A DNA stretch of 64,000 nt. Source: Paraburkholderia sp. (GTDB lineage Bacteria; Pseudomonadota; Gammaproteobacteria; Burkholderiales; Burkholderiaceae). The translations under genes and the position numbers were made by a program. The notes under the pieces were generated by a model. The model was not told the origin of the DNA and did not search any database. It worked only from the letters and a program-made list of their open reading frames with translations. This document shows positions 16,141 through 55,143 of the stretch, in pieces; position 1 is the first letter of the stretch, and each line of letters opens with the position of its first letter. The stretch covers positions 3,467 to 67,466 of the forward strand of contig NZ_DASZJJ010000089.1 of the NCBI RefSeq assembly GCF_035948235.1, given 5' to 3'.

Positions 16141-16454
16141 GTCGGGCTCTCCAGGAAAGGTTGGGATACGGGTGCATTGGACCGTGCGCACGTATCCGCT
16201 ACATGTCCCCAACGGCTGCCGTGTGCAACGTAATGTGTCGCGGCCCGCGCCGGATACCTGGCGATACAAATCGGCCGCGCCGTGCGGTGCTTCATGTATC
16301 CGCGTGTATCCCGGCAGCGGCGCGATACATACGGAGGCGCCGCGCGCGGTTTCCCGACATTCACCCGATACATCCAGACCTTGAAATACCGCACATGGCC
16401 AGGGCGCCGCGTGCGTTCCTCGAATTTTGTGTGGATCTGTCTGGAGACCGACTC

Positions 16455-18305
16455 ATGTTGCTGCTCGTCGTCGCATTCATCGGCGGTGTGTTCACCGTCC
16501 TCAGTCCCTGCATCCTGCCGGTCGTGCCGTTCGTATTCGCGCGCTCGGACCAGCCCTTTGTCACCGGCCGTCTGCCCTTGCTGATCGGGCTGGGCGGCAC
16601 CTTCGCACTGCTCACGGGACTGGGCGCAGCGGGGCTCGAGGGCGCAGCCCGGTTGAGTGAGTATGGGCGCTATGTCGCGCTGGCGCTCTTTGCGGTATTC
16701 GGCGCGGCGCTGCTGTTTCCCGCGCTGGCCACGCGGCTGGCGCAGCCGCTGACCACGCTCGCTGATCGTTTCGTCGCGCGCTCCGGTGGTTCCGGTGGTT
16801 CCTATGGTTCCGATCGTTCCGATGGTTCCAGCACGCAGGGCACGGCGGCCCAGGTTGGGCCGGCGTTGTTGCTCGGCGCGGCGACGGGGCTGCTGTGGGC
16901 GCCTTGTGCCGGGCCGATCCTCGGTTTGATCCTGACGGGCGCGGTCCGCCATGGCGTGACGTGGCAGACATGGGCGGCGCTTGGTGCGTATGCGGCGGGC
17001 GCAGCGTGTTCGCTCGCGATAGTCGCGAGTCTCGGCAAGCGTGCGATGGATGCGCTCAAGCGCTCCCTGGGTGTGGGCGAGCATCTGCGCCGCGCATTGG
17101 GGGTGCTCGTGCTGGTGACGGTGGGTGCGATTGCATCTGGCGTCGATACGCGGGTGCTCGCGCATTTGCCGGGTTCGCCGACCGAAGCGCTGGAAAACCG
17201 GCTGACCGGCCAGTTGAATGCGAACGCCACCGCTGCGGCGGCGTCGGTTGTGACCGTCCGACAGGCGCGGCAGTCGCCGAAGGCGAGCAGCCTGCGCGTT
17301 TCCACATCCGCCGCCGCTGTGCCGCCCGCTGCCGCGCTGCCCGTGGAAGGCACCTTGCCGTCGCTCGATGGGGCATCGGCGTGGCTGAATTCCGCGCCGC
17401 TCGCGCCGCAGGATCTGCGCGGCAAGGTCGTGGTGGTCAACTTCTGGACCTATTCGTGCATCAACTGTTTGCGCACGCTACCGTATCTGAAGACCTGGGC
17501 GCAGCGCTATCAGAACGACGGGCTGGTGGTGATCGGCGTGCATACGCCCGAGTTTGGATTCGAGCACGACGCCGGTAACGTAAAGCGCGCGCTGGCGGAT
17601 CTGGGCATCCGCTATCCGGTTGCGATCGATAACGACTATCGCGTCTGGAACGCCTTCGGCAATGCGTACTGGCCGGCGTTCTATATCGTCGATGCGCAAG
17701 GCCGCGTGCGTTATCACCACTTCGGCGAGGGCGACTACGGGCAGGCCGAGCGGGCGATCCGGCAATTGCTCGCGGAAAACGGCCACTCGACCGATGCGCA
17801 TGCGGCTCACGTCGTGCAGGCGAGCGGCGCGCAGGCCCCGGCCGATCCCGCCGATACGGGTTCCGGTGAAACGTATCTGGGTTATCGCGAGGGGCGCGGC
17901 TTTGCTTCGCCGCAAGCGTTGCAGCCCGATAGCACGGCCAGTTACACGCTGCCCGCCAATCTGCCGCTCAATGCGTGGGCGCTCGACGGGCGCTGGAATA
18001 TCGGCGCGGAATCGGCTGTGCCTGCAGCGCCGCAAGCGGGCGTCGCCTACCGTTTCCACGCGCGCGATCTGCATCTGGTGCTGGCGCCTGCGCCGGACGG
18101 CAAGCCGGTGCGCTTTCGCATCACGATCGACGGTGCTGCGCCCGGGGACGCACACGGCGCCGATGTTGCCGCGGACGGTACGGGCGTCGTGACGGGCGCG
18201 CGGCTTTATCAACTGGTGCGCCAAAGCGGGGCGATTGGCGACCGCATCTTCGAAATCCGCTTTCTCGATGCCGGTGCGCGGGTCTATACGTTCACATTCG
18301 GTTGA
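16455..18305 (+). CDS. dipZ: Cytochrome c biogenesis/thiol-disulfide transfer protein DipZ (CcdA-like membrane domain + thioredoxin domain + C-terminal domain)
   Basis: It starts MLLLVVAFIGGVFTVLSPCILPVVPF (DsbD/CcdA-type TM Cys), with a second WAPCAGP motif. The periplasmic thioredoxin domain carries WTYSCINC, and ATG 16455 follows CTGGAGA. Confidence 0.85.
   Translation: MLLLVVAFIGGVFTVLSPCILPVVPFVFARSDQPFVTGRLPLLIGLGGTFALLTGLGAAGLEGAARLSEYGRYVALALFAVFGAALLFPALATRLAQPLTTLADRFVARSGGSGGSYGSDRSDGSSTQGTAAQVGPALLLGAATGLLWAPCAGPILGLILTGAVRHGVTWQTWAALGAYAAGAACSLAIVASLGKRAMDALKRSLGVGEHLRRALGVLVLVTVGAIASGVDTRVLAHLPGSPTEALENRLTGQLNANATAAAASVVTVRQARQSPKASSLRVSTSAAAVPPAAALPVEGTLPSLDGASAWLNSAPLAPQDLRGKVVVVNFWTYSCINCLRTLPYLKTWAQRYQNDGLVVIGVHTPEFGFEHDAGNVKRALADLGIRYPVAIDNDYRVWNAFGNAYWPAFYIVDAQGRVRYHHFGEGDYGQAERAIRQLLAENGHSTDAHAAHVVQASGAQAPADPADTGSGETYLGYREGRGFASPQALQPDSTASYTLPANLPLNAWALDGRWNIGAESAVPAAPQAGVAYRFHARDLHLVLAPAPDGKPVRFRITIDGAAPGDAHGADVAADGTGVVTGARLYQLVRQSGAIGDRIFEIRFLDAGARVYTFTFG
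16785..16829 (+). repeat. In-frame 9-bp tandem repeat x5 inside dipZ (encodes GGS GGS YGS DRS DGS)
   Basis: GGTGGTTCC GGTGGTTCC TATGGTTCC GATCGTTCC GATGGTTCC. Confidence 0.9.
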
Positions 18306-23809: not shown

Positions 23810-24964
<1,155 letters not shown>

Positions 24965-25010
24965 CTACCGGCGCGAGTCAATCAAGCTTCGAACGACTAA
25001 CCGCGAAGCC

Positions 25011-25286
25011 TCAGCGAAGATAGGAACGCACGAGCGAAACGACTTCGTCAATGGATTTTTTCGAGGTGTCGTCGGCGGGCGCGAGGCTTGAAAACTCCTC
25101 GCGCAGATGGCTTTCCAGCACGCCGGCCATCAAGCCGTTGATGGCGCCGCGCATGGCGGCAATCTGCTGGAGAATCGGCCCGCATTCCGCGCCTTCCTCA
25201 AGCGCGCGCTCAAGCGCGTCAAGCTGGCCGCGTACGCGGCGAACGCGGGCCAGAACGCGCTTTTTTTCTTCGACGGTGTGGGGCAT
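25011..25286 (-). CDS. frmR: FrmR/RcnR-family (CsoR-like, DUF156) formaldehyde-responsive repressor
   Basis: The 91-aa helical protein begins [29 protein letters not shown] and has a Cys in ECGPILQQ. It sits directly upstream of adhC. Confidence 0.85.
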
Positions 25287-28171: not shown

Positions 28172-29359
28172 GTGAATCAACCTTCGTCTGAGGCCGCCAC
28201 GCACGACGGCCCGCTCTTCCTGATGGCGATGCTGGCGCTTGGCACCGTCGCGCCGACAGTGTTCTGGGGACTGCCGGTGATCGTCGGCCAGATCGCGCAG
28301 CAATGGGGTTTTGGTGCGGCGGATCTGGGGATCGCCGTGCTGGGCGAGGTGTTCGGCATGGCGGCGGGCACGCTGCTGATGGCGACCGTGCTCGCGCGCC
28401 GACCTTTGCGCGTGACGCTCGCGGGCACGATTGCGCTCACGGCGCTTGCGAATTTCATCACGCCTTACGCGCATACGTTGCCGCTTTTTATCGTGGCGCG
28501 CGCCGTGGCCGGTATTGGCGCGGGCGCGCTGAGCGGCATCGCCATGAGTTGCCTGTCCTATACGAAGGCGGCGGAGCGCAATATCGGCCTGCTGGTGCTG
28601 CTGCAGGTGTTGTGGAGCATGGCGTTGCTGGGCTATGTGCTGCCGGTCGTGGGCGCAATCGCGCAGGCGTCGGGCACCTATGTGTGTATCGGCGTGCTGG
28701 CGCTGGCGTTCCTTCCCGCCATCACGCTGTTCAGGCGTGGGGAGGCATTCGTTAGCGCCCAGGCGGGCGAGGGCGCGCAGGTCGATCTTCGTGGTGTCGT
28801 GCTGCTGCTGGGGTGTATCTTCGCGCTGTATTTTGGCGTGGGCGTGCTGTGGACGTTCCTCGAACAGATGGGCATGCGCGCGGGCTTGAGCGATGCGCGC
28901 GTCGCCACGACGCTGGTGTACGCCAATCTCGTGAGCCTGGCCGCGTGCGTGGTGATGCCACGCCTCGGACGCGGCAACGGCCTGCGGCGCTGGGCGATCG
29001 TCAATATTGGCGCCTGCGTGGTTTCGGCCGCGGCGCTCACCATGCCGCAAACGCCCGATCGTTTCTCCATCGCCGCCATCGTCTTTATCGTGGCGTGGAC
29101 GGGCGCCGCAACGCTGATCTTCGCAACCATGCCGCGCGTCGATCCCATCGGGCGCTACGCGACGCTGTCGCCGGGCGTGCTGTCGCTGGGCTTTGGCATC
29201 GGTTCGGCGGCGGGGGGCGAGTTGATCGAACTGCTCGACGCGCGCGCCGCCGTCGGTCTGGCGTGTGTGTTCTGCTGCATGTCCCTGCTGCTGTATGTGA
29301 GCCTCGGGCGGGCACGCGAGGCGGCGCAGGAACCGCTATCGCGCGCGAGCCAGAGTTAG
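28172..29359 (+). CDS. MFS transporter
   Basis: The 395-aa product has about 12 hydrophobic segments. The start is GTG after CGGAGACC. Confidence 0.8.
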   Translation: MNQPSSEAATHDGPLFLMAMLALGTVAPTVFWGLPVIVGQIAQQWGFGAADLGIAVLGEVFGMAAGTLLMATVLARRPLRVTLAGTIALTALANFITPYAHTLPLFIVARAVAGIGAGALSGIAMSCLSYTKAAERNIGLLVLLQVLWSMALLGYVLPVVGAIAQASGTYVCIGVLALAFLPAITLFRRGEAFVSAQAGEGAQVDLRGVVLLLGCIFALYFGVGVLWTFLEQMGMRAGLSDARVATTLVYANLVSLAACVVMPRLGRGNGLRRWAIVNIGACVVSAAALTMPQTPDRFSIAAIVFIVAWTGAATLIFATMPRVDPIGRYATLSPGVLSLGFGIGSAAGGELIELLDARAAVGLACVFCCMSLLLYVSLGRAREAAQEPLSRASQS

Positions 29360-29865
29360 GTCGAACGGCTCGCGCGGTCGCCCAGCAGCCAGTCGATCGA
29401 GATGCGGCCCGGCCCCCACGCGGCGATGCCCAGTGCCATTGCAGCCCACGTGATGTGAATCGGCCAGCCGTCCGGCACCGTTAATTCGATGATGCAGGTC
29501 ATCAGGAACAGACCTGCAGCGGCGAAACGCGTGCCGAAGCCGAGCACCAGCAGGACGGGAAATCCCACCTCGCCGCAAGCGGAAAGAAACGCAAAAACGG
29601 CGGGGGCGGGGAAGGGATAAGGACCGCCTGGCAGATGGAGCTGGAATTCGTCGGTAAATAGCGTGATTGCCGTGTCGTTGAGTTGCAGGAAGCCATGCCA
29701 TTTGAGGATGCCCGAGCGCCAGAATGGCACGGCAAGCGCCAGACGCAGCACGAGTTGCACGAGCCACGGCTGCGCCAGTGTTTCGATCGCGCGGCGCGCC
29801 CGCACGATGGCGTTAGTCAGCAAGACCGGGGCGGACGGTTTGAGGTTTTCCTGGGTCGACATCAT
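29356..29865 (-). CDS. DoxX-family membrane protein, last gene of bufferin-type operon
   Basis: 169 aa with 4 TM segments and the DoxX-like block RLALAVPFWRSGILKW. It overlaps the upstream gene by 4 nt (ATGA). Confidence 0.8.
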   Translation of the reverse strand: MMSTQENLKPSAPVLLTNAIVRARRAIETLAQPWLVQLVLRLALAVPFWRSGILKWHGFLQLNDTAITLFTDEFQLHLPGGPYPFPAPAVFAFLSACGEVGFPVLLVLGFGTRFAAAGLFLMTCIIELTVPDGWPIHITWAAMALGIAAWGPGRISIDWLLGDRASRST

Positions 29866-30641
29866 GATGGTGCTCCAGAACGGATGGCAGTGAACACGCC
29901 GGCGGCAATCATCGCCTGCAAATTGATTTGGATATCGAATGATTCGTCATCGCACATCGCCGCTTCAACGGCAGCGCCCAAGGTCGAGCCTTCCATGAGC
30001 GCAAGCAGGAACGCCGCGCCACCAGCGGGCAGTTGCGAGACGATTACGTCCTGGTCGGGACGCGTGACGAGCGCGTCCTGCGCGTCGCTTGCGTGCAGCG
30101 CTTCAACCGGGCCAGCCTTGCGGTTCATGGCGAAAATCGAAACAGCCGGATAGCGCGAGCGCACGATCCGTGTGGCCGGATGAGCGACGAAGCGCAGTTG
30201 CGCGAGCGATCCGGTTTCGACTGCAGCGAACGCCTGCGCGGCCAACGGTGCGGCATCTGCCGCGTGATACGCATCGAGCCAGGCGCGTTCGATTCTGGCT
30301 GTATCGGCGAGCCATGGCATCTCGCGCGCGTATTCGTACGATTCGATAAAGGCTGGAAAACCGGTGCCGTACTCAAAAAGCAGCGGCGAACGCGGCGGCG
30401 TCGCACGCACATGAAAACGCGCCATCGCGCGAAAGAATTCGATGCCCGTGATCCGCTGCACCGCCGGATAGATTGCGGCGAGCGCATCGATCAAGCTGAC
30501 CGTCACGTTGTTGCGATAAACGTTGTAGCGATTGACGACGCCCTTGCCACGCGGTGCGATCACGTCGGCGGGGGCGATATAGGCAGGATCGGTTAATCCT
30601 TGCGCGAAGCCCGTCGCGTAGGCCTGCTGTTCAGGCTTCAT
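29862..30641 (-). CDS. bufC: DUF2063 protein (BufC-like partner of the MNIO enzyme)
   Basis: It has NRYNVYRNNVTVSLIDALAAIYPAVQRITGIEFFRAMARFH, typical of the DUF2063 N-terminal domain. It overlaps the DUF692 gene by 11 nt. Confidence 0.8.
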   Translation of the reverse strand: MKPEQQAYATGFAQGLTDPAYIAPADVIAPRGKGVVNRYNVYRNNVTVSLIDALAAIYPAVQRITGIEFFRAMARFHVRATPPRSPLLFEYGTGFPAFIESYEYAREMPWLADTARIERAWLDAYHAADAAPLAAQAFAAVETGSLAQLRFVAHPATRIVRSRYPAVSIFAMNRKAGPVEALHASDAQDALVTRPDQDVIVSQLPAGGAAFLLALMEGSTLGAAVEAAMCDDESFDIQINLQAMIAAGVFTAIRSGAPS

Positions 30642-31548
30642 GGCAGAGGCCTTCGTTATACGTCGGGATACGCTGCGTCATGATCTGCCGGGCCGCTTCG
30701 GCCTGTGCTCGCAGCACGGGCCATGCGGGCAGATCGCTGTCCCATTCGATCAAGGTCGGCACGGCGCCGATGCGGGAGATGACCTGAGCGTAGAGATCCC
30801 ACACCACGTCGGCCACGGGGCTATCGTGACTGTCGATCAGTAGCGGTTGATGCTCGTCGTCGAGTTGTTCGCTGTGACCGGCCAGATGAATTTCGCCGAC
30901 GTATTCGAGCGGAAATGCGCTCAGGTATTCGTGCGCCGAATAGCCATGATTAATCGCCGAAACAAAGACGTTGTTCACATCGAGCAACAAGCCGCATCCC
31001 GTCTTTTGCGCGACCGCGCGCAGAAAATCGGTTTCGCTCAGGGTCGATGAGGCAAACATCACATACGTCGAAGGATTTTCCAGCAGGATCGGACGGCCGA
31101 TCGCGCTTTGCATCTGGTCGATGTGCGCGCACACGCGATCAAGCGTTTCGCGGTGATAGGGCAGAGGCAACAGGTCGTTGAAGAACGTGCCGCCGTGCGA
31201 GGACCACGCGAGATGTTCCGAAACAAAGGCGGGTTCGTAGCGCGCCACCAGATCACGAAAGCGCGCGAGATGCGTTAAATCCAGTGCGTCCGGCCCGCCA
31301 ATCGACATGCACACGCCATGCAGCGAAACCGGATGGCGCTCGCGAATCGCGGCAAGCGCGCGGTGGGGCGGCCCGCCTGCACCCATATAGTTTTCGGCGT
31401 GGACTTCGAAAAAGCCGTCTGGCAAGCCCTCTTCGATAATCGCGCCCAGATGTTCGTGCTTGAAACTCGTGCCCACCAGCGCGGCGCGAGCGGGACGGCC
31501 AGGCGTTGGCCTCGCCATTGATCGGATGAAATCGTTCATGGCCGTCAC
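30631..31548 (-). CDS. bufB: DUF692 / MNIO (MbnB-like multinuclear non-heme iron oxidase) RiPP-modifying enzyme
   Basis: It has the blocks FFEVHAENYMGAGG, VSLHGVCMSIGG, SEHLAWSSHGG, NDLLPLPY and ILLENPSTY, characteristic of the UPF0276/DUF692 TIM-barrel family. Confidence 0.85.
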   Translation of the reverse strand: MTAMNDFIRSMARPTPGRPARAALVGTSFKHEHLGAIIEEGLPDGFFEVHAENYMGAGGPPHRALAAIRERHPVSLHGVCMSIGGPDALDLTHLARFRDLVARYEPAFVSEHLAWSSHGGTFFNDLLPLPYHRETLDRVCAHIDQMQSAIGRPILLENPSTYVMFASSTLSETDFLRAVAQKTGCGLLLDVNNVFVSAINHGYSAHEYLSAFPLEYVGEIHLAGHSEQLDDEHQPLLIDSHDSPVADVVWDLYAQVISRIGAVPTLIEWDSDLPAWPVLRAQAEAARQIMTQRIPTYNEGLCHEA

Positions 31549-31581
31549 GCTCCTCGCTGGGTGATGGAAGAACGCGAGCGA

Positions 31582-31893
31582 TCAGGACTTCATCGGCGTG
31601 AGCGAGCCGTGGCCGCCGCCCGGCACCTGGATGCTCGTGCAGGTGCCACCCTGAACGAACTTCCACGAATTGCCCTGGAAGTCCATCGCCGAGGTGCCCT
31701 GGCAGGTCGTGCCAGGACCGGCTGCGCAGTCGTTTTGCCCCTTGAGCGCGACGCCGTAGCACTTTTCCTTATGCGCGGCCATGGCGGCGCTGGCTTCGGC
31801 CTGGGTGAGCGGCGCGGCGTGAACGGTCGAAGCGAGCAGGCTTGCGACGGCGCCAGCGAGCAGCGCGGCATTGACGTTGAGCTTTGCGGACAT
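31582..31893 (-). CDS. bufA: DUF2282 exported Cys-containing peptide, bufferin (BufA1-like) RiPP precursor
   Basis: 103 aa from ATG 31893 (CCGGAGAACACTC RBS), with a Sec signal peptide ending TVHA/AP. It has the [19 protein letters not shown] hallmark and four Cys in total, and sits 33 nt upstream of the DUF692 gene. Confidence 0.8.
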
Positions 31894-31980
31894 GAGTGTT
31901 CTCCGGTGGTAGAAGTAGAGGGTATCCGTCGTGGATACAACAGCTAATTCGCGCAGGCTGCGCCACCGGTTACAGCGAAG

Positions 31981-32030: not shown

Positions 32031-33182
32031 TCAGAACTTGTGCCGCAGACCGATCCGGCCGACGAACTGTTGCTGCGTGGACGAGCTGTCGTCGGCGCCG
32101 CCCGCATAGGCCAGGTCCAGCGCGGTGCCGCTGTTCGCGCTGATCGCGCGTTGATAGCTCGCCATTGCGTAAACGTCGGTGCGTTTGGTGAGGTTGTAAT
32201 CGAGCATCAAGCCAAACGTGTGATATTTGGGCCGATACGAGCCCGCCGATGTATCGAGCTTTGCCTGCGTATAGTCGTACATCGCGCCGAACATCAGCGC
32301 GGTGGTGATCGCCCAGTTCGCGTTGAGTTCGAAATTATCGAACGTCAGCGACGAGGCATGCTGACCGCCCGGCACAATCGCGCCGCTGATATACGAATAG
32401 GCGGTGGGATCGCTGAGATTCGTATGCGTGTACACGAAGCCAAGCGTGACCGCGTCCACCTGATAGTTGACGCCCGCGCCATAAACCCGATGGCGTGAGG
32501 CCACGAAACCCGCATCGTCGCTGGTCACCGCGCCCAGTGCGTTGGCGCCGGGATTCGTCACGTTGAGCCACGCAGCGCCGAACGTCAGCCCGTTGACCGC
32601 GTAACTGACGCCAAAGCTCTGCGCATTGTTGGTCGAAATCTGGCCGGGCAGATTGGAGAACGCATACGTGGCGCCCACGCGCAATCCGCCGAAATTCACG
32701 CTATTGAACTGCACGGCGTTGTCGAGGCGGAATGAGTTGTCGGTGTTGTCGTTGTCGTAGGGATGCTCGAACAGGAAGCCGCCCCAGTTGCCGTTGGCCG
32801 TGAGCGGCGCGAGATATTCGACCAGCGAATCGTACTGGCGTCCGAACGTGAGCGTGCCCACATCGTCGTGCGCGATCCCCACCCACGCCTGGCGGCCGAA
32901 CATGCGGCTACCTTCCATAAGCCGTCCGGAACTGGCGTCGATGCCGCTTTCAAGCTGGAACACCGCGGACAGTTTGCCGCCCAGCGCTTGCGTGCCTCTA
33001 AGTCCCCAGCGGCTGCCCTGAGCGGCGCCGCTCAGCATCTCCGTGACGGCGTGGCCGCGCACGTTGCTGGTGTAGTCGATCCCCTCATCGACCAGCCCGA
33101 ACAGGGTGACCGAACTCTGGGCCCACGCGGGCGCGAGCGCCATTCCCGTGAGCACGCCCACGAACAGTTGTGTCTTTTTCAA
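32031..33182 (-). CDS. OmpC-family general porin
   Basis: It has the signal peptide [21 protein letters not shown] and the N-terminus [13 protein letters not shown]. The beta-strand pattern alternates and the protein ends in F (..RIGLRHKF). Confidence 0.9.
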
Positions 33183-37051: not shown

Positions 37052-38224
37052 TCAGAACTTGTGGCGAATGCCCACGGTCGCAATCGCCTGTACCGTATCG
37101 TTCGACGAATAACCGTACGAGCCGATCGAGGCTTCGGCAGGCGCGGTGCCGCCCTTGCCGTTGCCCTGCGTGCCGCTCGCGTGCTGCCACGCGCCCATCA
37201 GATACACATCCGTGCGCCTGGACAGCGAATAATCCGCGCCTGCGGACACCTGGTGATAGGTCGCGGACGTATTGCCATCGGCTTTCGTGTAGATATAGCC
37301 AAGACCGAGCAGCAGCGCCGGCGTCGCCTGATAGCCGACATACGCACCGCCTACGTTATAGCGTTCCGTGCTGCCGAATGCCGATTGCGCGTCCGGACGA
37401 TACTGCGCGTTGCTATAACGCAGGTTCATCTTCACCGGTCCCATCACATACTGCACCGCCACCGACGCAATGCCGATCGACTTCGCCGTGATATAGCCGT
37501 TATTCAGCGGCGTGTTGGGATCGAAATTGCCATCGAAGGTGCCGTCCGAGGTGCCGCTCCAGCCGGTGCGCTTGACGCTCGACGCGGCATTGGCAGCGTA
37601 GAAGTAGCCCGCCGCCGCGCTGAACTGGCCGATCGAATACGTGGCCGCGCCCGACCACGTCTGGCCCGAGCCGGTCTGCCCCGCAACGCCGCCCAGTGCG
37701 TAGAGACCTTCGAACTGGAAGCCGGAAATAACCGGCGACACATACTTCACGGCGTTATTGGTGCGCGAGCTGTTGTCGTTGTTATCGACGTCGCCTGGCG
37801 TGGAGAACATGCTGCTGAAGTCGTTATCGGCGGTGAGCGGCTGGATCATGTCGACGAGCGGGTCGTACTGACGACCGAGCGTCACGGTGCCCCACTGATC
37901 GCCAGACAGGCCGACAAACGCCTGGCGGCCAAACATGCGGCCGCCTTGATGGAAGCCGCCGCTATTCGGATTGAAGCCGTTTTCAAGCTGGAAAATCGCC
38001 TTGAGGCCGCCGCCCAGATCTTCGGCGCCCTTGAGGCCCCAGCGGCTGCCCGACAGGTTGCTGTCGGCCATGCCCCAGCGATGATCGCCTTGCGAGTTGG
38101 CGTGGCTCACGTACTGGATCGACGTGTCGATCACGCCGTAGAGCGTGACGCTGTCCGCGGCGAAGGCGGCGGAACTCGCGCCCAGCAAGGCGAGGGAAAG
38201 CACGGAAAGTCGAAGCGTGTTCAT
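37052..38224 (-). CDS. OmpC-family general porin (paralogue of 32031..33182)
   Basis: It has a signal peptide, DSVTLYGVIDTSIQY near the N-terminus, and the C-terminus TVGIRHKF. Confidence 0.9.
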   Translation of the reverse strand: MNTLRLSVLSLALLGASSAAFAADSVTLYGVIDTSIQYVSHANSQGDHRWGMADSNLSGSRWGLKGAEDLGGGLKAIFQLENGFNPNSGGFHQGGRMFGRQAFVGLSGDQWGTVTLGRQYDPLVDMIQPLTADNDFSSMFSTPGDVDNNDNSSRTNNAVKYVSPVISGFQFEGLYALGGVAGQTGSGQTWSGAATYSIGQFSAAAGYFYAANAASSVKRTGWSGTSDGTFDGNFDPNTPLNNGYITAKSIGIASVAVQYVMGPVKMNLRYSNAQYRPDAQSAFGSTERYNVGGAYVGYQATPALLLGLGYIYTKADGNTSATYHQVSAGADYSLSRRTDVYLMGAWQHASGTQGNGKGGTAPAEASIGSYGYSSNDTVQAIATVGIRHKF

Positions 38225-38291: not shown

Positions 38292-40430
38292 TCAGCTCGC
38301 CGCGCCCATGGCTGGATCGCTGACGCTGTCCTTGCCCGTTTCCACGCGGCCCGCGAAGCGGCGCGTCACGCCGTTTTCTGCGGCTAGCGTGAAGTCGTAC
38401 CAGCCGTTCGAGGCGGTGAGCGACCAGTACGGTTCGACCTGCATACCGGCTGGGACGCTATAGGTCCAGGGGCCGTCGGCGCGATAGGCATTGCTCGTGA
38501 CCGTGACGCTCGTGGTCGAGGTGCCGGTATTCATGATGGTTAGATAGACGGCGTTGTTGGTCTCGTCGTAGCACACGCGCACTTCCGGTTTCGGACCAGT
38601 TGCGGATGCAACGATATTGCCGGTGAACGCGCGATGGAAACCGTTGGGGCCGAGCACCCAGAGGCTGTACGCGCCGCTGTCCGTCGAGGCGGGTGTCCAG
38701 ATATCTGAGAGTTCCTTGCCCGCTTCCACGGTGTAGCGGCGCGGCGCGCGGTCCAGATGCAACTGGTCGTAGACGTGGAACACCGCACCCGCGCTGCCGG
38801 TATTGCTGAACACGAGCCACACGGCGCCGTTTTGCGTATCGACGTTCGCACTCGTGTGCAGGTGATAGGGCAGCGCACGCGAGGGGCGCAGCGCCAGCGC
38901 CTGTTGCGGCATCGTCTGGGTGGCGACCGACGGCACGGGCACCGCGCCCAGCGCGCTTTGCTGGGCGCTTTGCGCATCGGCGGCGGCCTTGGTGGGCGCG
39001 GCGATTGCGGCAGGCGTGGCGTCGTTCGGCGTCGCGAAGTTGAAGCACGAAGTCAGGTCGCCGAACACGGTCCGCCGCCACGGGCTGATGTTCGGCTCGT
39101 ACACGCCGAAGCGCGCTTCGAGAAAGCGCAGCACCGAGGTATGGTCGAATACCTGCGAGTTCACAAAGCCGCCCGTGCTCCACGGCGACACCACGAACAT
39201 CGGCACACGCGGGCCCGGGCCATAGGGCAGCCCGTCGGGTTTGAGCGGCGAGGAATCGCCGGGCGGGTTTGGCACAGTGAAATACTCGTACTGCGTGGTG
39301 ACCGTGGATTTGCCCGCATAGGTGCCGTCGCCGTTGGGCGAGGGCACGTCGGGCGGCGGCATGTGATCGAAGAAGCAGTCGTTCTCGTCGTAGTTGACGA
39401 TGAGCACTGTCTTGCTCCAGACGTCCGGGTTTGCAGTCAGTGCGTCGAGCAGCAATTGCAGGTAATACGCGCCCTGGCCTGGCGTCGATACACCGGGGTG
39501 TTCGCAATACGCCTGCGGCGAGACGATCCAGCTCACCTGCGGCAGTTGGCCGGCGGCGATATCGTCGCGCAATGCCTGCAGAAAGCCGCCGTCGGGCATG
39601 GTGTTGCCGATGCCCTTGTAAAGCGGCGAGAGCGCCTCCATTGCGGCCGTATAGGGCGCGTTCGGCGAGCCGGGCACGGTCTCGTTGACCTTGCGAAAGC
39701 TCGCGAAGCCGGCGAGCGGGTTGTCGGTGTAGTTGTCGGGCTGGTTCTCGTAGACCTTCCAGCTCACGCCCGCGCCTTGCAGACGCTCGGCGTAGGTGGT
39801 CCACGTAAGGCCAGTTGCCGATGCGCTCAGGCCGTCCCAGCCGTTGTTGTTCACCACCGCGTAATTCGAGCCGGTCGGGCCATTCGTGCCGGTCCACATG
39901 AAGATGCGGTTGGAGTTGGTGCCGCCGTGCAGCGAGCAGTGGTACGCGTCGCAGATCGTGAAGGCGTTGGCCATCGCGAAGTGAAACGGCAGGTCGGCAG
40001 ATTGCAGATAGCCCATCGATACGTCGCCCTTCGACTTCGGCCATTGCGTCATGCGGCCGTTGTCCCAGGCGCTGTGCGCGTCGGTCCACGAATGCGCGCC
40101 GCCCGCGAGCAGTGCGTTGCCCTTGGTGCTGTCCAGATGGAAGGGCAGCACGGTGCGGCTGCCGTCGCTCTGCTGCCAGACGTTCGTGCCGCCTGGCTGC
40201 GGGATCGTGAAGCGGTCGGCGAAGCCGCGCACGCCTGGCAGCGTGCCGAAGTAATGGTCGAACGAGCGGTTCTCCTGCATGAAGATCACGACGTGCTGGA
40301 CGTCGTTGATCGTGCCGGTCGTGTTGTTCGCGGGAATCGCGAGCGCACGCCGGATCGCAGGCGGAAACAGACTGAGCGACGCGCCGGCCGCGGCGGCGCG
40401 CAGGAAGTGACGGCGATTCATTGAAGTCAT
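38292..40430 (-). CDS. plcN: Phosphocholine-specific (non-haemolytic) phospholipase C, Tat-exported
   Basis: It has the Tat signal MNRRHFLRAAAAGASLSLF and the block HVVIFMQENRSFDHYFGTLPGVRGF typical of the acid phosphatase/PLC family. The length is 712 aa. Confidence 0.9.
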   Translation of the reverse strand: MTSMNRRHFLRAAAAGASLSLFPPAIRRALAIPANNTTGTINDVQHVVIFMQENRSFDHYFGTLPGVRGFADRFTIPQPGGTNVWQQSDGSRTVLPFHLDSTKGNALLAGGAHSWTDAHSAWDNGRMTQWPKSKGDVSMGYLQSADLPFHFAMANAFTICDAYHCSLHGGTNSNRIFMWTGTNGPTGSNYAVVNNNGWDGLSASATGLTWTTYAERLQGAGVSWKVYENQPDNYTDNPLAGFASFRKVNETVPGSPNAPYTAAMEALSPLYKGIGNTMPDGGFLQALRDDIAAGQLPQVSWIVSPQAYCEHPGVSTPGQGAYYLQLLLDALTANPDVWSKTVLIVNYDENDCFFDHMPPPDVPSPNGDGTYAGKSTVTTQYEYFTVPNPPGDSSPLKPDGLPYGPGPRVPMFVVSPWSTGGFVNSQVFDHTSVLRFLEARFGVYEPNISPWRRTVFGDLTSCFNFATPNDATPAAIAAPTKAAADAQSAQQSALGAVPVPSVATQTMPQQALALRPSRALPYHLHTSANVDTQNGAVWLVFSNTGSAGAVFHVYDQLHLDRAPRRYTVEAGKELSDIWTPASTDSGAYSLWVLGPNGFHRAFTGNIVASATGPKPEVRVCYDETNNAVYLTIMNTGTSTTSVTVTSNAYRADGPWTYSVPAGMQVEPYWSLTASNGWYDFTLAAENGVTRRFAGRVETGKDSVSDPAMGAAS

Positions 40431-40562
40431 GTTGGGCAGTGTTTTTGTGTATGCACGCGTGTTTAGGCAGGCGCAACCGGCGAACCGGCACGCGCGCGTA
40501 ACGATGTATTCAGGTAGGCCTTATAGAAGCGAGCCGCGCGCTATTTGCGCGGCCCGCTTCAA

Positions 40563-40838
40563 TCAGGGCGCGCAGTCCAGTTGGGTGTTGAGCAAGGGCT
40601 GGGCGGCGCTGGCGCCCGATGCCGCACAACCGCCCGAAGCGGGCGCGGCCACGATGGCCACAGGTGCGCTTGCGCCGCCCGCTCCGGCGGCGGCCGTGTT
40701 GCCCGTGGCTGCCGCGCCGCCCGAGGCGCCGTTGTTGTTCGCGCCGTCGCCGCAAGCCGCGAGAGAGGCGCCAAGCACCACAGCAACAAAAGCTCCTGCG
40801 CCAAAGCGATATTTCGGATTCCGAAAGACAATATTCAT
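40563..40838 (-). CDS. Small Gly/Ala/Ser-rich lipoprotein, unknown function
   Basis: It has the lipobox SLAAC, low-complexity composition and two further Cys near the C-terminus. A hairpin follows the stop. The low complexity makes the coding call tentative. Confidence 0.5.
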   Translation of the reverse strand: MNIVFRNPKYRFGAGAFVAVVLGASLAACGDGANNNGASGGAAATGNTAAAGAGGASAPVAIVAAPASGGCAASGASAAQPLLNTQLDCAP

Positions 40839-40861
40839 CGTCGAACTCTCTTCAGGATGGA

Positions 40862-42970
40862 TCAGGGAAGAAGCGTGGAAAGCGGTTTGCCCGAGCCGTA
40901 GACGGTCTGCAATTCGGCCTCCGTGACGGTGCGCTTCCAGAACGCGAGGTCGCCGAACGACTGCACATCAGGTGGCGTCGCCGCGCACTTGCCGGCCGTA
41001 TAGGGCGGCGTGTCCTTGCAGGCGTTCATGTAGTACTGGCCCGTACCGTCCTCGTTCAAGCCGAACACCCCAAGACCCGGCAGTTTCGCCACGTTCGCCG
41101 TGACCGACGTGCTGTACTTCTGTTCGCCGAGCACCGGATCGAACACATAGCCCGTCATCGTCTTGCCCGTCGTGTCGATGGTGAGCGCGATATAGGACCA
41201 CTTGTTGGCCGTGACCGTCGCCGAATTCATATCGTTGCGCGTACTACCATCGCCAATATTGAAGCGCACGTTGCAGCTCGTGCTCGATCCCGGGAAGAGA
41301 CCAATGGCGATCCCCGCATTGCCGCCGGAGTAGTAGTTTTTGTTCGACAGGATCGGCGTGCCGTTGCCCGTGAGGTTCTGGCACGAGGTCATGAACCAGA
41401 AGCCCAGCGTGAACTGCGCCTGCGTCGTGACGTCGTTGGTTTGCTGCAGACGATAGCCGTCGAAGCCGTTGCTATCGACAATGCTCGTGTCGATTTTCAG
41501 GCCCTTGCCGCCGAACGGATCGGCCGTGAGCGAGCCGCCGTCCGCATCCGTGGCCCAGGCCGCGAGCGTGCTGGCGCTCATTTTGTCGATGGCCGGCAGC
41601 GCGCCGAACGGGTAGTAGGTGGACAGGCCGTTCGTGAGCGTGGTTGCGAGTGCGGGCGGCGGAGGCGGGGGCGGCGGGGGGGCGACATAAGCCACGCGGA
41701 TCAGCGAGGACACCGGCGCGGTTCCCGCAGCCACCGTGTAGTTGAACGTGTAGGCGCCGGTGGTGCTCACGCCCAGATTGCTGTCCGTGTAAGTGGCCGT
41801 GCCGGCGGGCAGCGTGGCGATCTGCTGGCCGTTGCGCAGCACCGTGATCGCGCCCGACGCTGGCGCGGTCCATGTGAGCACCGTGCTGGCGTTGTCGCTG
41901 CCCGTCAAGCCGTTGAGTTGCGAAACCGGCTGCTGGCCGGTCAACTCGCCGCCGTCGAGCGCATACGTTGTAGCGCCTGGCAGCGCACCTCGCCAGGCAA
42001 GCAGCGTGGGCGCGATATCGGCAATGCTTGCGCGCGTATAGAGGTCCGCGAGCGAGGTGGGCGCAGCGCTGCTGCCCGCGCGCCCGTTGCTCTGCACATT
42101 CATGCCGATAAAGCTGGTCGACTCCGGCGCAAGCGGCAGACCGTCGGTGCCGCCCGCCGCGTTCAGACCGTGGCTCGCGCTCACCATCACGAGCCAGTTT
42201 TCGCCGCTGCGCTGTGCGGTTTCGGCGATCAGCGTGCCCACGGCGCTGTCGAGCTGTGTGAGCGTGCTGGCGTAATTCGACGAATTGAGGCCCCAGTTGA
42301 GCGCGCCGTCCTGCGCCGAATGATATTGCGCGACAACCAGCGAGTAGCCGTTGTCGATCATGCTCAGGCCTTGCTTCGTCACGCAACTGTCCACAGACGC
42401 GCAATTGACGACGCTATCCAGATAGCCTGCGTTCTGATCGGGCGCGAGGATCGCGGCGAAGCCCGGCGAATCGACGGCTGCGCCCAGCGTGCCCGCGCCC
42501 GCTGATTTGAGCATCGAGAACACCGTGGGCGCGTGCAGCGCCTGGCCCGATGCATCGGAATTGATCTGGTGACGATCGGCCCATGCGCCGGTGACAAGGG
42601 TGGCCCAGCCCGGTGTATCGAGGTTCGGCTGCTGGCTGAGCGTGCTGTTGACGCCGCCGCTATAGGCAGGCGCAAATTTGAGCTTCGCAAGGTTCGGCAG
42701 CTTGCCGGCGGCGATCGCCGTGGTGAGCGCGCTATAGGTCACGCCGTCCAGTTCGATTACCAGCATCTTGTTGACCGGCGTGGTGTTGCTTGCCGAATTG
42801 CCCGTGCTGGTGTTACCCGCTGCGTTGCTCGCTGTACCGGAATTCACCGCCGCGCCCGACGATTGCGTCGCCTCGCCGCCGCATCCCGCGAGTGCGCCAG
42901 CGAGCGCGAGCCCGCAAAGCGCCTGCACGGCGGCCGCGGTGGCGGCCTTCCTCGCTGCCTGCCTTGTCAT
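40862..42970 (-). CDS. Lipoprotein: alkaline-phosphatase-superfamily phosphodiesterase/nucleotide pyrophosphatase domain + poly-Pro linker + LamG (concanavalin-like) domain
   Basis: It has the lipobox LAGC, VIELDGVTYS and VSASHGL motifs (metal/nucleophile contexts of type I phosphodiesterases) and a P9 linker. The C-terminal block FTLGFWF...KWSYIALTID is typical of LamG. Confidence 0.75.
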   Translation of the reverse strand: MTRQAARKAATAAAVQALCGLALAGALAGCGGEATQSSGAAVNSGTASNAAGNTSTGNSASNTTPVNKMLVIELDGVTYSALTTAIAAGKLPNLAKLKFAPAYSGGVNSTLSQQPNLDTPGWATLVTGAWADRHQINSDASGQALHAPTVFSMLKSAGAGTLGAAVDSPGFAAILAPDQNAGYLDSVVNCASVDSCVTKQGLSMIDNGYSLVVAQYHSAQDGALNWGLNSSNYASTLTQLDSAVGTLIAETAQRSGENWLVMVSASHGLNAAGGTDGLPLAPESTSFIGMNVQSNGRAGSSAAPTSLADLYTRASIADIAPTLLAWRGALPGATTYALDGGELTGQQPVSQLNGLTGSDNASTVLTWTAPASGAITVLRNGQQIATLPAGTATYTDSNLGVSTTGAYTFNYTVAAGTAPVSSLIRVAYVAPPPPPPPPPALATTLTNGLSTYYPFGALPAIDKMSASTLAAWATDADGGSLTADPFGGKGLKIDTSIVDSNGFDGYRLQQTNDVTTQAQFTLGFWFMTSCQNLTGNGTPILSNKNYYSGGNAGIAIGLFPGSSTSCNVRFNIGDGSTRNDMNSATVTANKWSYIALTIDTTGKTMTGYVFDPVLGEQKYSTSVTANVAKLPGLGVFGLNEDGTGQYYMNACKDTPPYTAGKCAATPPDVQSFGDLAFWKRTVTEAELQTVYGSGKPLSTLLP

Positions 42971-52860: not shown

Positions 52861-55143
52861 CTACGGCTGCTGGTTTGACGCGCGCACGACGTGTACGGGA
52901 ACAGACTTGTACGACGGCGTGCCGCTTTCCTTGTCGATATAGTCGAGCGGCACCAGCACGTTGGCTTCCGGGTAATAAGCCGCGACGGAGCCTCTAGCAA
53001 TGCTATACACAATTGCGGTGATGTTCTTCATTTTGAGCACACGGCCGGCCATGACCGTTTCGATATCGACAAGATCGCCGTGTTCGATGCCATGTGCGGC
53101 CATATCGTCGGCGTTCATGAAGAGCACGTCGCGCCGCCCGAACACGCCGCGGTAGCGGTCGTCCATCGCATAGATCGTGGTGTTGTACTGGTCGTGGCTG
53201 CGGATCGTGATGAGGCGCAGCACGTTTTCGGCGCCCAGCACGTCGGCGTCTTCCTTCACGCCGTCATAGACCGAGAATTCGGCTTTGCCCGATGGCGTAT
53301 GCCACTGGCGTTCGGTCGGCGGCAGGGGCAGGCGGAAGCCGCCCGGCACGCGGATACGCCGGTTGAAGTCCTCGAAGCCCGGCACCGTGCGCTCGATCAA
53401 TTCGCGGATCTTGTCGTAGTCGGACACCAGATCCATCCAGTCCACTTTGGAGTGCGGCATGGCAGCACGCGCCATGCCAGCGACAATCGCCGGCTCCGAG
53501 CGCAACTGCTCTGACGCGGGCTTGAGCTTGCCCGCGGACGCATGCACCATCGACATCGAATCCTCCACTGTGACCGATTGCCGTCCGCTGCTCTGCATAT
53601 CGAGCTCGGTGCGGCCAAGACACGGAAAGAGATACGTTTCCCGGGCCACTAGCAGATGCGTGCGATTGAGTTTTGTGCCGATATGCACGGCGAGGTCGAG
53701 CGTCGCCATCGCCGCAAACGCCTGCTGCGGGTCGGGCAACGCCACCGCGAAATTGCCGCCCAGACACAGCAGCGCCTTCGAGCTGCCGTCAATCATCGCC
53801 TGCATGGCCTGCACCGCGTCGTGGCCGTGACCGGACGGCGGCGTGAATCCGCAGGCGTCCTCGATCAGCTTGAGGAAGGCCGCCGAAGGTTTTTCGGTGA
53901 TGCCGACGGTGCGGTTGCCCTGCACGTTGGAGTGGCCGCGCAACGGGCAGATGCCCGCGCCCGGCTTGCCGATATTGCCGCGCATCAAGAGCAGGTCGGC
54001 GATCAGGCGCACGTTGGCCGTGCCCTTGTTGTGCTGCGTGACGCCCATGCCGTAGGTGACGATGGTCGCGCTGGATTTGGCGTAGGCGAGCGCCACATGT
54101 TCGAGGTCGGCGCGCTCCAGCCCGCTGGCCTTTTCGATGTCTTCCCACGATGTGGCTTCCAGATCGGCGGCGCACGCGTCGAAACCACGCGTATGCGCGG
54201 CGATGAACGCCTTGTCGAGCACGCCGCCTTGTTCCGCTTCCATCTGCAGGAGCGCTTTCATGACGCCTTTGAGCGCGGCGGCGTCGCCGCCGGCATCGAC
54301 CTGAAAATAGGTCGAGGCAATCCGCGTCGATGCGAAGGTCGCCATTTCCATCATGCTTTGAGGGTCGGCAAAACGTTCGAGCGCGCGTTCGCGCAGCGGG
54401 TTGAAGACGATGATTGGCACGTTACGGCGCGCTGCCTCGTGCAGCGTGCCCATCATGCGCGGGTGATTGGTGCCCGGGTTGTGGCCGATGGAAATGATGA
54501 GTTCCGTCGTGTCGAAGTCTTCGAGCGATACCGTGCCTTTGCCGATGCCGATCGATTGCGGCAGGCCGACGCTGGTTGGCTCGTGGCACATGTTCGAGCA
54601 ATCGGGAAAATTGTTGGTGCCAAACTCTCGCGCGAACAGTTGATAGAGGAACGCAGCTTCATTCGACGCGCGCCCGGAGGTGTAGAACTCGACCTGATCG
54701 GGCGTGAGCGTGCGCAGGATCTCGCCGATGCGCGCGAACGCGTCTTCCCAGGCGACGGGGCGCAGGGTGTCGGTGGCGCGGTCGTAGACCATCGGGTGCG
54801 TGAGCCGGCCCATGTCTTCGAGTTCGTAGTCGGTCTTTTGCAGCAATGAGGTGACGGTGTTGGCCGCGAAGAACTCCGGCGTGACGCGTTTCGTGGTGGC
54901 TTCCCACGTGACGGCTTTCGCGCCGTTTTCACAGAACTGGAAGGTGGAGCGATGCTCCTTGTCCGGCCACGCGCAGCCGGGACAGTCGAAGCCGTCGGGC
55001 TGATTGGTCCGCATCAGGGTGATGGGCGCCTCGATGCTTTCCATCTGATCGTGAATCGCCTGGGCGATGGCTTTGAGCGCGCCCCATCCGCCTGCGGGAC
55101 CGGTATAAGGATGAACGCCTGGCACATCACGTAGTTTCGTCAT
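52861..55143 (-). CDS. FdhF/YdeP-family molybdopterin oxidoreductase
   Basis: 760 aa with PYTGPAGGWGALKA and FDCPGCAWPD (Fe-S Cys cluster context), typical of YdeP-like proteins. CAGGAGTTTCTC precedes ATG 55143. Confidence 0.85.
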   Translation of the reverse strand: MTKLRDVPGVHPYTGPAGGWGALKAIAQAIHDQMESIEAPITLMRTNQPDGFDCPGCAWPDKEHRSTFQFCENGAKAVTWEATTKRVTPEFFAANTVTSLLQKTDYELEDMGRLTHPMVYDRATDTLRPVAWEDAFARIGEILRTLTPDQVEFYTSGRASNEAAFLYQLFAREFGTNNFPDCSNMCHEPTSVGLPQSIGIGKGTVSLEDFDTTELIISIGHNPGTNHPRMMGTLHEAARRNVPIIVFNPLRERALERFADPQSMMEMATFASTRIASTYFQVDAGGDAAALKGVMKALLQMEAEQGGVLDKAFIAAHTRGFDACAADLEATSWEDIEKASGLERADLEHVALAYAKSSATIVTYGMGVTQHNKGTANVRLIADLLLMRGNIGKPGAGICPLRGHSNVQGNRTVGITEKPSAAFLKLIEDACGFTPPSGHGHDAVQAMQAMIDGSSKALLCLGGNFAVALPDPQQAFAAMATLDLAVHIGTKLNRTHLLVARETYLFPCLGRTELDMQSSGRQSVTVEDSMSMVHASAGKLKPASEQLRSEPAIVAGMARAAMPHSKVDWMDLVSDYDKIRELIERTVPGFEDFNRRIRVPGGFRLPLPPTERQWHTPSGKAEFSVYDGVKEDADVLGAENVLRLITIRSHDQYNTTIYAMDDRYRGVFGRRDVLFMNADDMAAHGIEHGDLVDIETVMAGRVLKMKNITAIVYSIARGSVAAYYPEANVLVPLDYIDKESGTPSYKSVPVHVVRASNQQP

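Follow-up and report, generated by a model that had tools for sequence, protein, structure and literature searches.

Bufferins were defined in 2024 as RiPPs (peptides made by the ribosome and modified after translation) in which a multinuclear non-heme iron oxidase (MNIO, DUF692) and a DUF2063 partner turn Cys residues of a Sec-exported DUF2282 or Buf2 precursor into 5-thiooxazoles (PMC11626156). The product binds copper in the periplasm; modification requires both the oxidase BufB and its partner BufC, in vivo and in vitro, and the DoxX protein encoded with them is dispensable for it (PMC11626156). Of the four Cys of Buf1, the central pair is converted to 5-thiooxazoles, whereas the outer pair is joined in a disulfide (PMC11626156; bioRxiv 10.64898/2025.12.15.693703), the 5-thiooxazole having been confirmed by selective 13C/15N labelling (bioRxiv 10.64898/2025.12.15.693703). 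The chemistry has been extended to peptides with EGKCG repeats, the structure of oxazolin has been revised to a 5-thiooxazole, and a survey of related clusters has mapped 21,424 precursor peptides (bioRxiv 10.1101/2025.11.18.689057). Buf1 clusters number in the thousands, with sigma factor and NrsF genes as frequent neighbours (PMC12452194), and a copper phenotype or copper binding is known only for Buf1 and Buf2 of Caulobacter vibrioides and, weakly, for the Cupriavidus metallidurans gig operon (PMC11626156). Here, we describe four genes, bufABCD, in a 64-kb window (the whole stretch of DNA that was analysed) from Paraburkholderia sp., which very probably form a self-contained Buf1-type bufferin biosynthetic operon of a species near P. 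eburnea and P. bannensis.

Three described loci have the same four-gene make-up. The C. vibrioides buf1 locus (CCNA_03363-03366, encoding BufA1, BufB1, BufC1 and BufD1) contains the same four families in the same order, under a GTAACC-N16-CGAA promoter of the same SigF type as that found upstream of the Paraburkholderia bufA; in Caulobacter sigF-nrsF adjoin the operon, whereas neither gene is found in the 64-kb window. The same order is seen on Sinorhizobium meliloti pSymB (SMb20530-SMb20527), where BufA, BufB, BufC and BufD are 66%, 65%, 54% and 66% identical to the window proteins, respectively. Transcription of SMb20530 has been shown experimentally to depend on RpoE7 (ECF16, a group of extracytoplasmic function, or ECF, sigma factors), and its promoter, GTAACA-N16-CGAA, lies 55 nt from the ATG, compared with 54 nt in the window, its -35 element ending in A rather than C; unlike in the window, rpoE7-ecfR7 lie directly upstream in divergent orientation. 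Closer in taxonomy, the gig operon of C. metallidurans CH34 (Rmet_4682-4685 / RMET_RS24090-24075) is of the same four-gene type and comes from the same family, Burkholderiaceae, a likeness judged from gene type and published description. Metals induce it, and it adds slightly to copper resistance, as studied through induction and knock-out (PMC11626156).

The Paraburkholderia operon lies on the minus strand at 31893..29356 (Table 1; all coordinates are those of the window). Both the list of open reading frames (ORFs) and the sequence itself confirm four consecutive minus-strand ORFs in the order A-B-C-D, at the positions where a first-pass annotation, made from the sequence alone, had placed a bufferin-type RiPP operon. 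The tight packing that it described also stands: bufB and bufC share 11 nt (ATGAAGCCTGA) at the stop of the one and the start of the other, and the bufD ATG lies across the bufC stop with 4 nt in common (ATGA). Its 305-aa BufB separated from bufA by 33 nt, which is the mechanical ORF call from GTG 31548 (31548..30631), does not hold up so well. A GGAG motif is found 10 nt upstream of the ATG at 31539 yet merely 1 nt from the GTG, and gene calls on identical metagenomic contigs give a BufB of 302 aa, so the start is most likely ATG 31539 and the gap between bufA and bufB is therefore more likely 42 nt.

Table 1. Genes and putative regulatory elements of the bufABCD operon.
Feature	Coordinates	Strand	Basis
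ECF16 (SigF/RpoE7-type) promoter, predicted -35 element GTAACC	31968..31973	-	Exact motif match
Same promoter, predicted -10 element CGAA (consensus in extended form CGAAtTAg), 54 nt 5' of the bufA ATG	31948..31951	-	Exact motif match
Leader hairpin/palindrome GTATCC-ACGAC-GGATAC, 9 nt after the -10 element	31922..31938	-	RNAalifold consensus
Ribosome binding site GGAG, 7 nt 5' of the bufA ATG	31901..31904	-	Sequence; at least 90% conserved in aligned leaders
bufA, BufA1/DUF2282 precursor, 103 aa	31582..31893	-	PF10048
bufB, MNIO (DUF692) maturase, 302 aa from ATG	30631..31539	-	PF05114, NF050167
bufC, DUF2063/HvfC_N partner, 259 aa	29862..30641	-	PF09836
bufD, DoxX-family membrane protein, 169 aa	29356..29865	-	PF07681

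Pfam places each of the four proteins in its expected family with a score well over the gathering threshold, as the first-pass annotation had anticipated, and its reading of the locus as a bufferin or gig-type RiPP operon is supported by these four profile matches, by a bufferin-specific equivalog match of BufB and by invariant Cys and iron-ligand residues. The precursor BufA matches PF10048 with 77.6 bits (gathering score 22.4, E = 7e-22), and homologues 83-91% identical to it carry the NCBI name 'BufA1 family periplasmic bufferin-type metallophore'; a sequence search of the PDB returned no match. Inspection of the N-terminus reveals Lys4, hydrophobic residues 5-24 and a V-H-A/A-P site, from which we predict a Sec signal peptide of residues 1-26 (window 31893..31816) cut after VHA, and A26, A27 and P28 are each at least 90% conserved in homologues. 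The core is 77 aa long and polar, the sole hydrophobic stretch of the protein being N-terminal, and its Cys at positions 19, 30, 38 and 59 correspond to Cys45, 56, 64 and 85 of the precursor, which are invariant in 79 unique homologues.

The resulting Cys spacing of 11/8/21 is that of Buf1 (Cys12/23/31/52), with which BufA also shares a CysI-Tyr pair and, by prediction, a Sec signal, as judged from published Cys positions and residues. The two peptides differ in the residues after CysII and CysIII, which are Lys and Ala in Buf1 and Ala and Gln in BufA, and in core mass (6978 Da for Buf1, 7699 Da for BufA). For mature BufA the predicted monoisotopic mass is 7688.48 Da, against 7698.56 Da for the unmodified core, a difference of about -10 Da.

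BufB matches the MNIO family PF05114 (MbnB_TglH_ChrH) with 350.8 bits (E = 5e-105) and the NCBIfam model NF050167 MNIO_BufB ('MNIO family bufferin maturase') with 376.5 bits, exceeding the equivalog cut-off of 310. It does not reach the NCBIfam cut-offs for HvfB (231.5 bits, cut-off 360), MbnB (TIGR04159; 64.7 bits, cut-off 325), ApyH and ChrH, and because it passes the BufB equivalog and fails those of the other MNIO groups it is assigned to the bufferin subfamily and not to those of methanobactin or oxazolin. Among solved structures the closest is that of the DUF692 protein 3BWW (E = 2e-40); TglH and several MbnB structures come next. In MbnB the iron ligands are His54, His90, Glu133, Asp163, Asn166, His192, Asp208, His210 and Glu239 (PMC9060507). 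Motif alignment to the MbnB, TglH and 3BWW structures gives as their counterparts in BufB H74, H109, E154, D187, N190, H218, D236, H238 and E265, all nine of which are invariant in the 79 homologues, and by this mapping the multinuclear iron site of BufB is intact.

Residues 11-99 of BufC match PF09836 (79.6 bits, E = 2e-22), and its homologues are named 'HvfC/BufC family peptide modification chaperone' in NCBI records; its sequence found no match in the PDB. The AlphaFold2 model of BufC has a mean predicted local distance difference test score (pLDDT) of 66, with a confident C-terminal domain, and its best PDB fold match is TglI (8hci_A), the partner of the MNIO TglH (E = 7e-4, probability 1.0), followed at a distance by weak matches to the RiPP recognition element (RRE) proteins TbiB1 and McbB. 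From TglI and these weak matches we suggest, with moderate confidence, that the C-terminal domain of BufC is an RRE-like peptide-recognition domain, in line with the role of a peptide-presenting partner that published work gives to BufC (PMC11626156). BufD matches PF07681 (61.9 bits, E = 9e-17), and bufD lies downstream of bufC in nearly all related loci.

Two other groups of MNIO systems were considered as the identity of the operon. The EGKCG captophorins (oxazolin, made by HvfABC with HvfX, fontiphorin and gonophorin) have an MNIO of the same subfamily, a DUF2063 partner and often a DoxX protein, and share with bufferins the 5-thiooxazole product and copper binding (bioRxiv 10.1101/2025.11.18.689057; bioRxiv 10.64898/2025.12.15.693703). 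Their precursors carry EGKCG repeats, whereas that of the window is a DUF2282 protein in which no EGKCG repeat was found, and with BufB, BufC and BufD all under the Hvf cut-offs (for BufC 33.7 against 142 for HvfC, for BufD 54.6 against 80 for HvfX) we rejected this assignment. Methanobactin MbnABC is more distant; its MNIO has the same iron-ligand framework and makes a copper-binding heterocycle from Cys, but the product is an oxazolone-thioamide in a secreted copper scavenger, not a periplasmic buffer, the precursor has no Sec signal and the partner is MbnC instead of a DUF2063 protein. The MbnB score of BufB, together with a DUF2282 precursor and a DUF2063 partner, led us to reject this candidate too.

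The comparison with relatives covered 80 genomic loci, drawn from Burkholderiaceae, Alcaligenaceae, Comamonadaceae and some Alphaproteobacteria. Of these, 70 keep the order A-B-C-D, which together with the strong Pfam matches shows that the arrangement is not due to chance. Median identities to the window proteins are 86% for BufA, 72% for BufB, 71% for BufC and 80% for BufD. Among species representatives, P. eburnea and P. bannensis come closest, and the precursor is better conserved than its maturation enzymes, both against P. eburnea (98% compared with 85-86%, BufB being 85% identical) and in the medians (86% compared with 71-72%); across the clade of the window BufA is 95-99% identical and BufB and BufC 80-86%. 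Identical BufA is found on soil-type metagenomic contigs, on one of which, 42 kb long, the four proteins and their flanks are 100% identical to those of the window. The flanking genes, encoding a porin, a solute-binding protein, an M20 peptidase, a transporter of the major facilitator superfamily (MFS) and an amidohydrolase, are common only to the closest relatives, so it is the four genes with their promoter that form the conserved unit. A megablast search of plasmids found no annotated colinear record.

A GTAACC-N16-CGAA motif at 31973..31948, within the 137-nt region upstream of bufA, is the single exact match on both strands of the window, where 0.09 would be expected by chance; allowing one mismatch added a second match, at 53893..53918, at the level of chance. 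This is the sigmaF-binding motif defined in C. crescentus by 5' rapid amplification of cDNA ends and reporter assays (PMC3511200). Of 88 bufA copies among relatives, 73 have the exact motif at a distance of 49-58 nt before the ATG and 10 more have it with one mismatch, and the -35 GTAACC is invariant in 68 aligned leaders, whereas the 16-nt spacer varies freely. The same exact motif is found upstream of ECF sigma and NrsF-type anti-sigma genes in related loci, and we infer that bufA is controlled in trans by an ECF16 sigma factor. A consensus scan found no sigma-70 promoter, terminator-like sites are no commoner than in shuffled sequence, and a hairpin with T-run after the porin gene and the region 3' of bufD fold no better than shuffles, so that we propose no terminator here. 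Scanning the whole window with Rfam and for tRNAs gave no match.

Besides these sigma and NrsF-like genes, the motif is seen upstream of periplasmic thioredoxin-like and DUF1223-like genes, a CxxCxxCC (YkgJ-like) gene and a second DoxX gene (all these cases together being in L015, L019, L033, L044, L047, L062, L064, L072 and other loci of the comparison), a distribution that outlines a small SigF-type regulon in Burkholderiaceae. In some Paraburkholderia and Burkholderia genomes (L025, L036, L041, L047, L061, L062 and L076) bufA is present twice within 12 kb, or there is a second buf cluster within that distance, each copy with its own ECF16-type promoter, and in L025, L041 and L061 a bufC-like gene lies 5' of bufA, preceded by a separate copy of the motif. 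Further afield, plasmid records with a BufB homologue number 73 from Escherichia and 18 from Klebsiella, and a complete bufABCD is present on the conjugative IncFIA/IncFII plasmid p309074-2 of K. pneumoniae from a human sample (L088, NZ_CP030298.1, 4595-7099). The BufB of p309074-2 is 54% identical to that of the window, and the plasmid operon follows a TetR/AcrR gene, without an ECF16 motif and with an AT-rich palindrome upstream.

Between the promoter and the ribosome binding site lies a further conserved element. In an alignment of 68 leaders (from loci L007-L080) RNAalifold predicts a single consensus helix, a 17-nt GTAYCC-N5-GGRTAC hairpin in which 94.7% of cells are paired. One pair varies among the 68 leaders, being UA in 45, UG in 12 and CG in 11 with no C.A, and such wobble-type asymmetric intermediates speak for a helix in RNA more than for a palindrome in DNA. 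On the other hand, four pairs are invariant, as they might also be in a sequence-specific protein site, and folded as a single sequence the window hairpin is no better than shuffles (z = -0.6). In the same loci, the other ECF16-type promoters that were tested have no such hairpin 3' of them. Alphaproteobacterial leaders, among them that of S. meliloti, have hairpins at the same position but of different sequence. As it lies 9 nt after the -10 element, the hairpin is probably within the first nucleotides of the bufA transcript, and the simplest idea is a 5'-terminal stabilising stem-loop. More speculatively, it could act as a stem-loop governing how stable the mRNA is or how well it is translated, or as a site where a second regulator binds; we tentatively propose, as a possibility to be held lightly, that it is an undescribed control element peculiar to bufferin mRNAs, adding a second layer of control to an operon unlinked from its ECF16 pair.

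In the model that we favour (the chemistry, export, disulfide, copper binding and inducing signal being taken from the described systems), an ECF16 sigma factor of the SigF/RpoE7 type, encoded elsewhere and held by an NrsF-type anti-sigma factor, would be released upon metal or oxidant stress in the envelope and start transcription at GTAACC-N16-CGAA. One mRNA would carry all four genes, with translation of bufB and bufC, and of bufC and bufD, coupled where stop and start codons overlap. BufB, the iron enzyme, would act in the cytoplasm together with BufC to oxidise Cys30 and Cys38 of the BufA core to 5-thiooxazoles, after which Sec would export the modified protein and signal peptidase would cut after Ala26. 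In the periplasm, a disulfide between Cys19 and Cys59 would form and the 77-residue protein may chelate excess copper. The DoxX protein BufD would be an accessory membrane protein, dispensable for modification.

The sequence holds nothing that contradicts this model, though several results weigh against it. The N-terminal DUF2063 half of the BufC model is unreliable (pLDDT < 50), and a fold search with the model did not recover 3DEE (NGO1945). BufC and BufD match NCBIfam only at Hvf models, in both cases beneath the cut-off. On the side of regulation, tblastn with proteins of related loci (E <= 1e-3) found no homologue of an ECF16 sigma factor or of NrsF (DUF1109) in the 64-kb window, and a search within 6 kb of buf in the closest relatives (L001-L012) found none either, whereas about 52 of the 80 related loci have a sigma or anti-sigma gene within 6 kb. 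The ECF16 regulator of the window operon is therefore assumed and not observed, which lowers confidence in the proposed regulation but not in the bufferin assignment. On the side of physiology, knock-out of gig in C. metallidurans had only a minor copper phenotype (PMC11626156) and DUF692/DUF2063 mutants are chlorite-sensitive in three gammaproteobacteria, so the physiological stress may not be copper.

These last two observations lend weight to the main live alternative, which concerns physiology and not identity: the same cluster with the same chemistry might serve chiefly in a general ECF16 envelope-stress response to oxidants (chlorite or hypochlorite, for example) or to metals like Cd, Cr or Au and not in copper buffering, in which case redox or sulfur protection would be the task of DoxX and the peptide. 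Consistent with this, the SigF regulon of C. crescentus is induced by chromate, dichromate and cadmium (PMC3511200), DUF692 of S. amazonensis is cofit with yedYZ, the thioredoxin-like, DUF1223-like and CxxCxxCC genes of related loci share the bufA promoter motif, and no copper-resistance genes are found near the operon in the window. Against it, purified Buf1 binds both Cu(I) and Cu(II) via its thiooxazoles and C. vibrioides buf mutants grow more slowly in CuSO4 (PMC11626156), related thiooxazole peptides bind Cu (bioRxiv 10.1101/2025.11.18.689057), and the Cys pattern of the window precursor is identical to that of Buf1. We regard a general stress role as the less likely account of the operon, though one to be taken seriously, and retain copper chelation as the probable function.

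Loss of the linked regulators could also mean that the operon is a silent remnant, in a clade that lost its sigF-nrsF pair and was left with a promoter lacking its cognate sigma factor and with genes that are unexpressed. The missing sigma and NrsF genes in the window and in its closest relatives, when most other loci have one, are what this explanation has in its favour. Unlinked regulators are, however, common in ECF regulons, all four ORFs are intact, and the precursor and enzymes keep across the clade the identities given above. The -35 and -10 elements, the hairpin and the ribosome binding site are kept exactly while the spacer drifts, which points to ongoing selection on the operon, and we consider decay to be quite improbable.

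As for the product, BufB and MbnB are distantly homologous and have iron ligands in common, and oxazolin was at first reported as an oxazolone-thioamide (title of PMC11252979), from which one might suppose that BufB installs oxazolone-thioamide pairs, as in methanobactin, in place of 5-thiooxazoles. With the oxazolin structure since revised to 5-thiooxazole, that of Buf1 confirmed by isotope labelling, and BufB far under the cut-off of the MbnB model while passing that for BufB, this is very improbable indeed. That DUF2282 is an integral membrane protein and DUF2063 a DNA-binding regulator, with no modified peptide at all, as the Pfam description lines ('Predicted integral membrane protein', 'Putative DNA-binding domain') and a DNA-binding proposal in the 3DEE structure paper (PMC2954202) would have it, is scarcely credible given that BufA has its one hydrophobic stretch at the N-terminus, running into a cleavage-type site, and is otherwise polar, that BufC is needed with BufB for modification (PMC11626156) and its model matches TglI and, weakly, RRE proteins, and that the published reconstitution of Buf1 contradicts it.

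Two genes for outer-membrane porins (Porin_4) lie on the minus strand about 5 kb apart (32031..33182 and 37052..38224), the first directly upstream of bufA, and we rejected a functional link of porin and buf, as this adjacency is kept only in the closest relatives and is probably coincidental. A class III zinc alcohol dehydrogenase gene adjoins that of a 91-aa metal-sensor-type repressor of the CsoR/RcnR/FrmR family (PF02583) at 23810..25286 (-). The repressor (25011..25286) was considered as a copper sensor and dismissed, as it lies beside the alcohol dehydrogenase and its plasmid homologues are annotated as FrmR with S-(hydroxymethyl)glutathione dehydrogenase; the pair is probably a formaldehyde module. 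A long ORF at 16161..18305 (+) with C-terminal Redoxin/AhpC-TSA and Thioredoxin_10 matches resembles a DipZ or DsbD-like thiol-disulfide protein, and 38292..42970 (-) holds a phospholipase C gene (Phosphoesterase and PLipase_C_C) followed by that of a 702-aa protein with weak phosphodiesterase and LamG-like matches. The third-codon-position GC content is 0.84 in bufA, 0.70 in bufB and 0.69 in bufC, the latter two slightly under that of neighbouring genes, a difference too weak to claim horizontal acquisition.

With high confidence, then, the operon is an intact member of a well-known and catalogued family. The first-pass annotation had based its interest on two points of novelty, that no experimentally studied member came from Burkholderiaceae and that standard pipelines label all four genes as DUF or hypothetical. 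Both fail, since the founding gig operon comes from C. metallidurans CH34 (PMC11626156), which NCBI taxonomy places in Burkholderiaceae, and since naming is already in place: close homologues from Paraburkholderia, Burkholderia and Bordetella are called BufA1 and HvfC/BufC family by NCBI, and Pfam currently labels PF10048 BufA1. With thousands of clusters, NCBI naming rules, a characterised model in Caulobacter and genetics in Cupriavidus, the discovery value of the locus is small, and the promoter footprint and leader hairpin are modest additions which do not make it exceptional.

What the locus does offer is a clean, compact Paraburkholderia case for the study of copper and metal tolerance in soil and rhizosphere Burkholderiaceae, with precise predictions in the cleavage of BufA after Ala26 and in the mass of the mature peptide. 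The promoter comparison indicates that the ECF16 motif travels with the operon even where the sigma and anti-sigma genes do not, and the conserved leader hairpin provides a small, testable regulatory lead. If the hairpin does prove to be a control element, bufferin output would be controlled by a second layer beyond SigF-NrsF.

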